Positions 7,399 through 7,461 of a stretch of 14,159 bases of DNA are shown here, piece after piece. The notes under the pieces were generated by a model, which saw only the letters and a list, made by a program, of their open reading frames with translations, made no database searches and was not told the origin of the DNA. The position numbers and the translations under genes are program-made. The DNA is taken from IMG/VR virus record IMGVR_UViG_2859821903_000004, positions 1 to 14,159 of that record. One strand, written 5' to 3'. Origin of the DNA: a virus (lineage: Duplodnaviria > Heunggongvirae > Uroviricota > Caudoviricetes). Position 1 is the first letter of the stretch, and each line of letters starts with the position of its first letter.

Positions 7399-7461
7399 GC
7401 CGAACCTTCCTCCGGATATAATCTGTGATTCCCCAATCAACAGAACCAGAGGAGGTTCGGC
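7399..7461. promoter_or_regulatory. Imperfect inverted repeat (GCCGAACC..CCTCC / GGAGG.TTCGGC) enclosing a consensus TATAAT hexamer, in the YdaT-like/initiator intergenic region
   Basis: Arms at 7399-7413 and 7451-7461. TATAAT at 7417-7422 on the + strand, which is antisense to the operon. The -35 region is weak. Confidence 0.3.

Follow-up and report, generated by a model that had tools for sequence, protein, structure and literature searches.

A conserved junction element between ydaT and the initiator gene of a caudoviral prophage, probably carrying a cargo promoter on one strand and an operon hairpin on the other

We analyzed a 14,159-nucleotide (nt) stretch of viral DNA (Caudoviricetes; IMG/VR record IMGVR_UViG_2859821903_000004, positions 1 to 14,159; hereafter "the window"), in which the early operon lies on the − strand and comprises a cro/ydaS-like gene, ydaT, a helix-turn-helix (HTH) initiator gene, and a helicase gene. 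The 90-nt gap between ydaT and the initiator gene holds an inverted repeat with a TATAAT hexamer inside it, and a preliminary description had tentatively likened this site to the antisense promoter of the lambda oop RNA. The data favor a different reading, to which we assign a probability of about 0.7: Positions 7395-7464 are an orphan copy of a two-strand junction element of ~68 base pairs (bp) that carries a promoter for an accessory ("cargo") gene on one strand and a hairpin of the operon RNA on the other. In the proposed arrangement, the cargo sits backwards in the early rightward operon, with the element linking the 5′ end of the cargo to the next operon gene. Across its relatives, the element forms an unchanging link, with a backward-facing accessory gene on one side and the following early-operon gene on the other.

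The repeat in the window proved to be larger than the imperfect 11-bp repeat that had been described. Its arms, GCCGAACCTTCCTCCGG and CCAGAGGAGGTTCGGC, form 15 Watson-Crick pairs with one bulged T and one C·A mismatch (7399-7415 and 7446-7461), and because of the bulge, an ungapped inverted-repeat finder misses the outer repeat, for which folding was used instead. The 67-nt − strand sequence folds at −36.5 kcal/mol (z = −6.05), a stability reached by 0 of 200 shuffles, and the + strand folds at −29.4 kcal/mol (z = −4.2); the fold is far beyond chance. The TATAAT was placed and oriented correctly, at 7417-7422 on the strand opposite to the operon and inside the repeat, and the site does lie at the junction between the gene in the CII position (ydaT, 7469-7891) and the initiator gene (6854-7378). 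The significance of the feature nevertheless rests on its conservation and not on the hexamer alone.

When the complete Escherichia coli genomes were searched with a 104-nt query spanning the gap, 633 of 5426 (~12%, including O157:H7 prophages) matched the element. The matched block was always 7387/8-7463, i.e., the repeat and little more, and it occurred in differing gene contexts; E. coli CFSAN029787 is 100% identical to the window over 7372-7475. From two pattern scans of viral contigs, a genome scan, and a metagenome scan anchored on proteins, 116 loci with 38 distinct variants were collected. The scan of genome contigs used a very degenerate pattern and returned mostly chance matches, its only real members being from Xenorhabdus (L009) and Izhakiella (L018). 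The family consensus reads TGGTG-(C/T)CGAACCTTCC...TAnnnT...AGAACCnnAGGAGGTTCG(A/G)C-AT(G) over 65 to 77 nt, with a long − strand hairpin, and the window copy fits it. Column identity is 0.87 to 1.0 in the arms and 0.3 to 0.6 directly outside the TGGTG on the left and the ATG on the right. A covariance model built from the relatives found one match in the window, at 7396-7463 on the − strand (87.3 bits, E = 4e-22), covering the full model length (1-68) with all pairs standard, and gave no match in phi80, the K-12 Rac prophage, or the K-12 bssS locus. Because the ydaT-ydaU gap of K-12 Rac measures 12 nt and lacks the element, the element is an addition to, and not a part of, the basic junction between ydaT and the replication genes. 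Rfam searches, first of the whole window and then of 7340-7520 with permissive filters, returned only chance-level small nucleolar RNA and microRNA matches at the element (E ~3). The family appears to be undescribed, with no Rfam match and no description found in the literature, while its components are of known kinds: a moron-type promoter with a ribosome-binding site (RBS) and an intercistronic mRNA hairpin.

In the cargo-bearing copies, the element ends in AAGGAGG-N6-ATG and thereby opens diverse + strand accessory genes. For instance, in O157:H7 TW14359 (near genome position 1,174,750), in O27:H7, and in a Bangladeshi isolate, a + strand gene begins exactly at the equivalent of window position 7462 and reads AAGGAGGTTCGAC-ATG; the TW14359 prophage also has a gene for a RelE/ParE-family toxin beside its repressor gene, as described for CP-933P. 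The ATG of the element opens open reading frames (ORFs) of at least four conserved families, namely the ECs1072 family (~151-157 amino acids), a family ending in LPELxWSDLPNELF (151-155 amino acids), phrog_4753 (97-99 amino acids), and a set of 70-90-amino-acid proteins that includes BssS-family members (BssS-like, PF13991); one cargo family begins MSLMAVCQ.... The element is retained beside cargo homologues that share only 35% amino-acid identity, and it is missing upstream of bssS in K-12, even though one cargo family is BssS-like. On the other side, a − strand gene starts 11 to 17 nt to the left of the GGTG in 95 of the 116 family loci, and these left-hand genes are of many kinds (DUF1376, DnaT-like, HTH initiators, Rha, YmfL-like, and others). 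The window follows the same rule, with a GAGG at 7388-7391 and an ATG at 7376-7378, 17 nt from the GGTG. As the genes to its left differ from locus to locus and adjoin it directly, the element itself must contain the cargo promoter.

A separate observation concerns the cargo region itself: Three cargo-bearing relatives (L002, 3295-3708; L254; L273) have a − strand ORF between cro or ydaT and the element. These ORFs share the N-terminal motif ..AG(D/G/N)L(S/E/T)P(E/G)EL..W... and overlap the 3′ half of the cargo in antisense by 230 to 270 nt in three diverged lineages, which may reflect a conserved convergent gene pair or may reflect over-extended ORFs.

The alignment of the 38 variants shows what this promoter would consist of. 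Columns 24, 25, and 29 read T, A, and T and are invariant or nearly so: TAnnnT stands in the aligned register in 30 of the 38 variants and, after a 2-nt shift, in 7 L006-type variants, and the last one has TATTCC with a TGn. The hexamer ends 36 to 39 nt before the ATG in all but one variant, which has a long loop (46 nt). A TGn extended −10 is found in 7 variants and in the orphan L004/L320 type; among the variants, it accompanies the weak hexamers TACTCT, TAGTCT, TAGCCT, and TATTCC. In the window, the family register corresponds to TAATCT at 7419-7424, so that the earlier call of a −10 at this place stands as regards the conserved TAnnnT and shifts 2 nt to the right of TATAAT as regards the register; no TGn precedes either hexamer there (GGA before TATAAT, ATA before TAATCT). 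We picture the + strand signal as a sigma-70 promoter that is essentially a −10 (TAnnnT, with TGn in relatives) with no usable −35, followed by a leader of ~30 nt and the strong RBS AAGGAGG-N6-ATG, where transcription would start inside the loop and exclude the left arm. This antisense promoter is probably real and probably kept even without cargo. By eye, three further signals were rejected: a sigma-54 site (CGGCAC is present, without the −12 GC element), a sigma-E site (the spacing between −35 and −10 is wrong), and a promoter on the − strand within the element (no conserved TAnnnT on that strand). The + strand leader also holds a conserved mini-hairpin of its own, GAACC-N6/7-GGTTC (7443-7458; alignment columns 58-74), with the Shine-Dalgarno (SD) sequence AAGGAG in its loop, and this middle GAACC vies with the GAACC of the left arm for the same GGTTC, which on the − strand gives two alternative folds of the 5′ arm.

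The pairing of the repeat, by contrast, follows the − strand. Among the non-Watson-Crick cells of the outer stem, 83 are C·A on the + strand, equivalent to G·U on the − strand, as against 5 of the reverse kind and 17 other mismatches. With the structure mirrored, 96.7% of the cells pair on the − strand (covariation 0.244) versus 83.8% on the + strand (0.111). RNAalifold predicted the long hairpin on the − strand only (−18.4 kcal/mol), with nothing on the + strand beyond the mini-hairpin in its GAACC-N7-GGTTC form, with the SD in the loop (−8.8 kcal/mol), and the single-sequence folds were 7 to 10 kcal/mol more stable on the − strand in 4 of 4 pairs tested. Compensatory exchanges of C-G to U-A occur at several pairs. 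Since the + strand transcript would start in the loop and thus lack the left arm, that arm can be selected only through the operon-strand RNA. Judged from these sequence comparisons, the repeat is selected on the operon (−) strand and does not belong to the antisense transcript.

An alternative in which the repeat serves the + strand would be a fold-back of the IS10/IS50 kind, where the left arm of incoming transcripts would hide the SD and AUG of the cargo while the element's own transcript is translated. The architecture fits this idea, in that the −10 is flanked by the two arms and the 3′ arm contains the SD and start codon; at least 34 of 38 variants have Watson-Crick pairs at the central positions (columns 6-11/70-75 and 14-15/67-68), which thus hold on both strands, and the + strand hairpin retains a stability of −19 to −29 kcal/mol. 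The strand on which selection is seen is nonetheless the other one: The lower stem is mostly C·A on the + strand (pair 5/76 in 31 of 38 variants), and the RNAalifold result goes the same way. Moreover, the + strand DNA upstream is antisense to early genes, where little incoming transcription is expected. We regard the fold-back as improbable.

On the − strand, the whole element would be transcribed as part of the early mRNA and fold into a stable hairpin. The predicted structure has a 16-17-bp stem, an asymmetric internal loop, and a small apical stem and ends 11 to 17 nt before the next start codon. Its 5′ arm contains ACCUCCUUU, a sequence that is complementary to the cargo RBS and resembles the anti-SD of 16S ribosomal RNA (rRNA); if unsequestered, it could pair with the nearby SD of the next gene, and the 3′ arm would sequester it. 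The hairpin may in this way neutralize the CCUCCU image of the cargo RBS and may mark a processing or stabilizing point just upstream of the next RBS. That the hairpin acts in processing, stabilization, or translational insulation of the operon mRNA seems to us rather probable.

The base of the hairpin has a distinctive layout. GGTG is present in 38 of 38 variants and is preceded by T in all 38 representatives (a further copy, L134, has A), so that the − strand reads U7462/G7461...C7399-A7398-C7397-C7396-A7395, i.e., AU/G-stem-C-ACCA, with the slash marking a putative cleavage site. Known determinants of E. coli RNase P are U(−1)/G(+1), a 3′ RCCA, and a helix of ~12 bp (PMC10731613). The layout matches U(−1), G(+1):C72, and the unpaired R73-C74-C75(-A76), and the helix that extends from the putative cleavage site, with 8 bp, a one-nucleotide bulge on the 3′ strand, and a further 8 bp, is long enough for the ~12-bp requirement. 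The layout suggests RNase P cleavage at the base of the stem, although the identification of RNase P as the enzyme is tentative and may well be wrong. A stronger version, which we consider quite unlikely, holds that the hairpin is a C4-like minihelix that mimics a tRNA acceptor, and that RNase P excises it or cuts at its base, freeing the downstream mRNA and releasing or exposing a ~67-nt antisense RNA to the cargo. The downstream early mRNA would then gain a 5′-terminal hairpin and shed several hundred nt of untranslated RNA antisense to the cargo, and the ~67-nt RNA, a perfect complement of the cargo leader, SD, and AUG, would silence the cargo once the lytic operon is on.

Several observations weigh against the two-strand junction element, or against its having a role in the window. 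TATAAT as such occurs at chance level (2 in the window versus 3.3 expected); the −35 is poor, as had been remarked, with CTGGTG at 17 bp (or TGGTGC) scoring 2 of 6; and a consensus promoter scan calls no promoter at the TATAAT. As the 38 variants are related, fewer independent events lie behind the cell counts than the numbers suggest. Part of one arm was preset in each pattern search, which inflates arm conservation while not creating the strand asymmetry. Near the loop, a few pairs have their G·U on the + strand instead, and a mutational strand bias could in principle produce the G-to-A excess on the + strand; the compensatory double changes speak against such a bias as the sole cause. A search of the accessible literature on the arm sequences, ECs1072, small RNAs (sRNAs) of enterohemorrhagic E. 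coli (EHEC) prophages, and Pas sRNAs found nothing that maps to the site, the EHEC anti-sRNAs in the literature mapping downstream of PR′, and it found no characterization of any cargo family. Lastly, the element in the window is 97% identical to cargo-bearing copies and may be a recent deletion scar without a selected role.

This last possibility touches on the orphan state of the copy. The window has ATA in place of ATG at 7462-7464, the ydaT stop codon 5 nt further on, and no cargo ORF; ATA without an ORF was found in 8 loci examined, including an E. coli locus (L001) that is 99% identical. The window amounts to the L002-like arrangement minus 653 bp of cargo region. A functionless scar of such a deletion would also be in keeping with the defective state of the prophage, whose initiator gene is frameshifted and whose helicase is truncated, and with the fact that K-12 Rac works without the element. 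However, the stem in the window is even better than in the relatives (C-G at pair 2), and an older orphan lineage also speaks against a scar: This second lineage (L004/L309/L320) is likewise without cargo and probably accounts for most of the 161 genome matches in the 80 to 90% identity band, and copies of the L004/L320 type differ from the window at 11 of 38 arm positions versus 1 of 29 core positions (Fisher p = 0.009), reading TGaTAATCT or TGaTATTCT, i.e., an extended −10. They keep the core with its TGn-TAnnnT while the arms decay. We therefore hold the scar to be unlikely, if still a serious contender. The decayed orphans lost stem, SD image, and CCA together (tail CACAA; fold −20.8 kcal/mol, z = −1.6), and this joint loss suggests that the − strand function is needed only when cargo lies upstream in the transcript. 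With the cargo gone from the window, the hairpin there would merely be intercistronic, between ydaT and the initiator gene.

Could the promoter then serve as an oop-type antisense RNA, as first proposed? In this account, a short RNA from ~7430 would overlap the 3′ end of ydaT and lower the level of the CII-like protein through an RNA duplex. The place is indeed that of oop: Between cII and the initiator gene, the phi80 record has an antisense-strand feature annotated as "M3 RNA; homolog of lambda oop RNA," and phi80 cII has been described as homologous to the YdaT of CP-933P (PMC8630535). The conserved −10 and the many genomes in which the orphan type keeps its core (the 161 matches) agree with an RNA of this kind. 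Nevertheless, a direct comparison with phi80 36229-36288 (M3) gave no similarity, a sensitive blastn search of 50,697 phage records gave no phi80 or lambda match, and, as noted, Rfam gave none either. Furthermore, M3 ends in a classical terminator (GCCCUUGAAG...CUUCAAGGGCUUUUU), whereas a terminator scan of the + strand found no intrinsic terminator at 7460-8700, and in most copies, the same promoter region leads to an RBS and a protein-coding gene. Homology to phi80 M3 or lambda oop was accordingly rejected, and a short oop-like RNA is very improbable, even though position and orientation were recognized correctly.

If the promoter fires in the window, its product would instead be an unterminated, untranslated transcript running antisense through ydaT and ydaS toward the repressor gene, more PRE-like than oop-like; the promoter would resemble oop or PRE in position and possibly in effect, not in ancestry. 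An active orphan promoter of this kind could interfere with ydaT and ydaS and read into the repressor gene (8179-8586), for which the + strand is the sense strand, and it might be controlled by YdaT through the inner palindrome. The palindrome overlies the predicted + strand start and has YdaT-box-like half-sites, GTGATT at 7425-7430 and AATCAA at 7435-7440, the left one identical to the left half of the YdaT box at 7881-7898. TGATT-N3-8-AATCA occurs 3 times in the window versus 0.17 expected. YdaT boxes were reported as TTGATT-N6-AATCAA in CP-933P, with the published form (A/T)TGATT-N6-AATCAA (PMC9986795), and as ATGATT-N6-AATCAA in Rac, where the box ATGATTCATGAAAATCAA was footprinted (PMC11879457). 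YdaT of CP-933P activates an antisense promoter, and the start of that promoter lies under the main YdaT box (PMC9986795, PMC8630535). The loop type also goes with ydaT, being found in 63 loci with and 2 without the gene, compared to 5 and 36 for other loops, a co-occurrence that shared ancestry confounds. Against YdaT control, the spacer is CCCC, i.e., N4, where all footprinted boxes have N6; the O157 variant (L003) has degenerate, asymmetric half-sites (TGGTT-N3-AATCG); and the palindrome is also explained as the apical stem of the RNA. The core retained in the orphans speaks for an active promoter. We rate the active orphan promoter as unlikely though worth bearing in mind, and the palindrome as a doubtful YdaT site.

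Some further sequences bear on the loop or on YdaT. A perfect palindrome with N6 spacing, CTGATT-TACGCG-AATCAG, lies at 4682-4699 within the − strand ORF 4304-5065 and may be a third YdaT site or a chance occurrence. In many variants without ydaT (e.g., L190, L165, and L242), the loop contains GGTTTTCCACAAC, which fits the relaxed DnaA-box pattern TTWTNCACA and forms, on the + strand, a C/A-rich stretch just upstream of the SD; the loop of the window is without it. By eye, a DnaA box (TTTTCCACA) was discarded, as it occurs in some loops and not in the window, and so was an integron attC-like site, whose core GTTCGAC fails GTTRRRY at position 4.

A last alternative, an intrinsic terminator (a tR1 analogue) for ydaS-ydaT or for the antisense transcript, might be suggested by the strong hairpin directly after the ydaT stop codon, and the terminator scan includes, at 7458-7443 (−), a small stem of 5 bp whose T-rich tail is weak. 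The long hairpin, however, is not followed by a U tract on either strand (ACCAGACGAGG on −, AUAAACAUC on +), the element comes after the cargo and not after ydaT in relatives, and the scan finds 4 terminator-like sites where 2.3 are expected by chance. A terminator is thus extremely improbable. The features of the junction element and its surroundings are collected in Table 1.

Table 1. Coordinates of the junction element, its parts, and nearby features in the window.
Feature	Position	Strand	Description	Basis
Conserved junction element	7395-7464		Orphan copy (probable): TGGTG, left arm, −10, inner hairpin, right arm with SD, start-codon position	
Unpaired 3′ tail ACCA of the − strand hairpin	7395-7398	−	Complement of the invariant TGGT	
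Left arm, GCCGAACCTTCCTCCGG	7399-7415		+ strand, anti-SD-like; − strand, 3′ arm of the RNA hairpin, CCGGAGGAAGGUUCGGC	Sequence, folds, pair counts
−10 region (predicted)	7417-7424	+	TATAAT 7417-7422 overlapping the family-conserved TAATCT 7419-7424; predicted start ~7430-7432	
Inner palindrome/apical stem-loop, CTGTGATT-CCCC-AATCAACAG	7423-7443		Enclosed by the outer repeat	
Right arm, CCAGAGGAGGTTCGGC	7446-7461		+ strand, relic SD GAGGAGG 7449-7455; − strand, 5′ arm, GCCGAACCUCCUCUGG	Relatives
Relic start-codon position, ATA	7462-7464	+	ATG in copies with an accessory gene	
SD of the initiator gene, GAGG	7388-7391	−	3 nt past the ACCA tail	Sequence
HTH replication-initiator gene	6854-7378	−	Frameshifted in the window; ATG 7376-7378	Comparison with L001
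ydaT, CII-position regulator	7469-7891	−	140 amino acids	ORF list, homologue annotation
Canonical YdaT box, GTGATT-CATGAA-AATCAG	7881-7898	−	Spans the ydaT start codon; matches the Rac box ATGATTCATGAAAATCAA	
cro/ydaS-like gene	7875-8102	−	Early operon	ORF list
Helicase gene	5444-6661	−	Early operon	ORF list
Repressor gene	8179-8586	+	+ strand is the sense strand	ORF list

The genes around the element complete this picture. YdaT of the window shares 96.4% identity with its counterpart in K-12 Rac, and an E. coli locus of 98.6% identity annotates the ydaT product as a "toxin YdaT family protein"; the ydaT stop codon (7469-7471) lies 7 nt from the hairpin. The initiator homologue of L001 has 251 amino acids and the product in the window 174, where a run of seven T residues in place of eight at ~7172 shifts the frame after ~69 codons. 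The helicase ORF ends at 5444 (stop at 5444-5446), and its L001 homologue is ~62 amino acids longer. Unless these initiator and helicase lesions are sequencing errors, the prophage looks replication-defective. A 40-amino-acid + strand ORF at 7472-7594 was discounted as a gene, as its ATG lies 16 nt from the SD and the frame is antisense to the ydaT coding region.

Elsewhere in the window, full-length Rfam matches on the + strand identify an isrK RNA (64.7 bits, 10191-10267) and a C4 antisense RNA (78.6 bits, 10292-10379), both within the 5′ part of a 279-amino-acid ORF (10140-10979). RefSeq labels the counterpart of this ORF in a related locus a Rha-family regulator, and the start of the coding sequence is probably over-extended; the isrK/C4 region looks like an antirepressor control module of the P1/Gifsy type. 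An ALIL pseudoknot, the frameshift signal of the IS3 family, matched with 116 bits at 2635-2751 (+), where the ORFs 2354-2680 and 2677-3567 overlap, which points to an IS3-family insertion sequence within the prophage. A weak DicF-like match at 9129-9179 (+) scored 28.6 bits, under the gathering score of 48 (E = 0.008). Finally, a 20-nt palindromic sequence around TACGCGTA (CTGTTTTACGCGTATGACAG) occurs twice, at 9694-9713 and 12574-12593, in opposite orientation and 2.9 kilobases apart.

If the two-strand model is true, a single module of ~68 bp lets a phage place a backward, separately expressed gene in an essential operon without damage: One strand would provide the cargo promoter and RBS, while the other would neutralize the image of that RBS and punctuate the mRNA before the next gene. 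It would also bring a common family to the very few mRNA hairpins whose ends resemble a tRNA acceptor, and should the RNase P or C4-like reading be right, it would disclose an unrecognized, widespread RNase P-dependent punctuation of mRNA together with cis-antisense control in a portable promoter cassette. The analysis further flags four uncharacterized accessory-protein families as probably expressed from the element. For the window, the "oop-like" promoter would be a leftover of the module that may still send antisense transcription into ydaT and ydaS.

The element resembles several known systems in part. With the YdaT box, it shares half-sites (GTGATT/AATCAA) that are identical or nearly so and, as for the box of CP-933P, an overlap with an antisense promoter start; it differs in a spacer of 4 bp and not 6 (3 bp in the O157 variant) and in the lack of conservation in O157, and it is no more than a candidate site. 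In IS10, transcription from pIN starts inside an inverted repeat with the RBS in the 3′ arm, and RNA-OUT is a stem-loop from the opposite strand that is complementary to the 5′ end of the mRNA. The element has the same promoter start within the repeat, RBS in the 3′ arm, and opposite-strand stem-loop. Its pairing, however, is selected on the antisense strand only, and it has no conserved dedicated promoter for that strand, since its conservation stops at the ATG. With lambda oop and phi80 M3, it has in common the antisense orientation, the place between the CII-position and initiator genes, and a promoter that points into the 3′ end of the CII-position gene; it is set apart by the lack of homology and of a terminator, by serving a protein gene in relatives, and by its hairpin being on the other strand.

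C4 RNA of P1/P7-type immunity (Rfam RF01695) is antisense to an RBS region. The element follows the same outline, ..AU/G, a 16-17-bp stem that encloses a small hairpin, and C-ACC(A), and the C4 RNA of the window itself reads AUUAU/GGUGAGG...CCUCACC-ACCC. RNase P releases C4 from a longer transcript by cutting at such a site, and C4 is listed as a substrate with "an extended stem instead of a T-loop" (PMC10731613). By contrast, the Rfam C4 model finds no match at 7340-7520, the element has one inner hairpin and not two, its complementarity is in cis and perfect, and the likeness is one of sequence layout only. Much the same holds for the RNase P sites in the his-operon hairpin and in pre-4.5S RNA: The shared features are the intercistronic position of the hairpin, U(−1)/G(+1), a 3′ RCCA, and a length of at least 12 bp, and RNase P cleavage in polycistronic mRNA has been proposed to stabilize the downstream mRNA (PMC10731613). 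Here too, the likeness of the element is one of sequence layout, and cleavage may be reduced because U(−1) is able to pair with A73.

Lambdoid morons offer a further parallel. Like them, the element brings an autonomous −10 promoter, a leader, and an RBS before diverse nonessential genes at a variable hotspot, a place that is empty in K-12 Rac. It departs from them in that its cargo is antisense to, and inside, the early operon; in that conservation of its ~68-bp leader far exceeds that of the proteins it serves (down to 35% identity); and in that its opposite strand additionally encodes a structure under selection.

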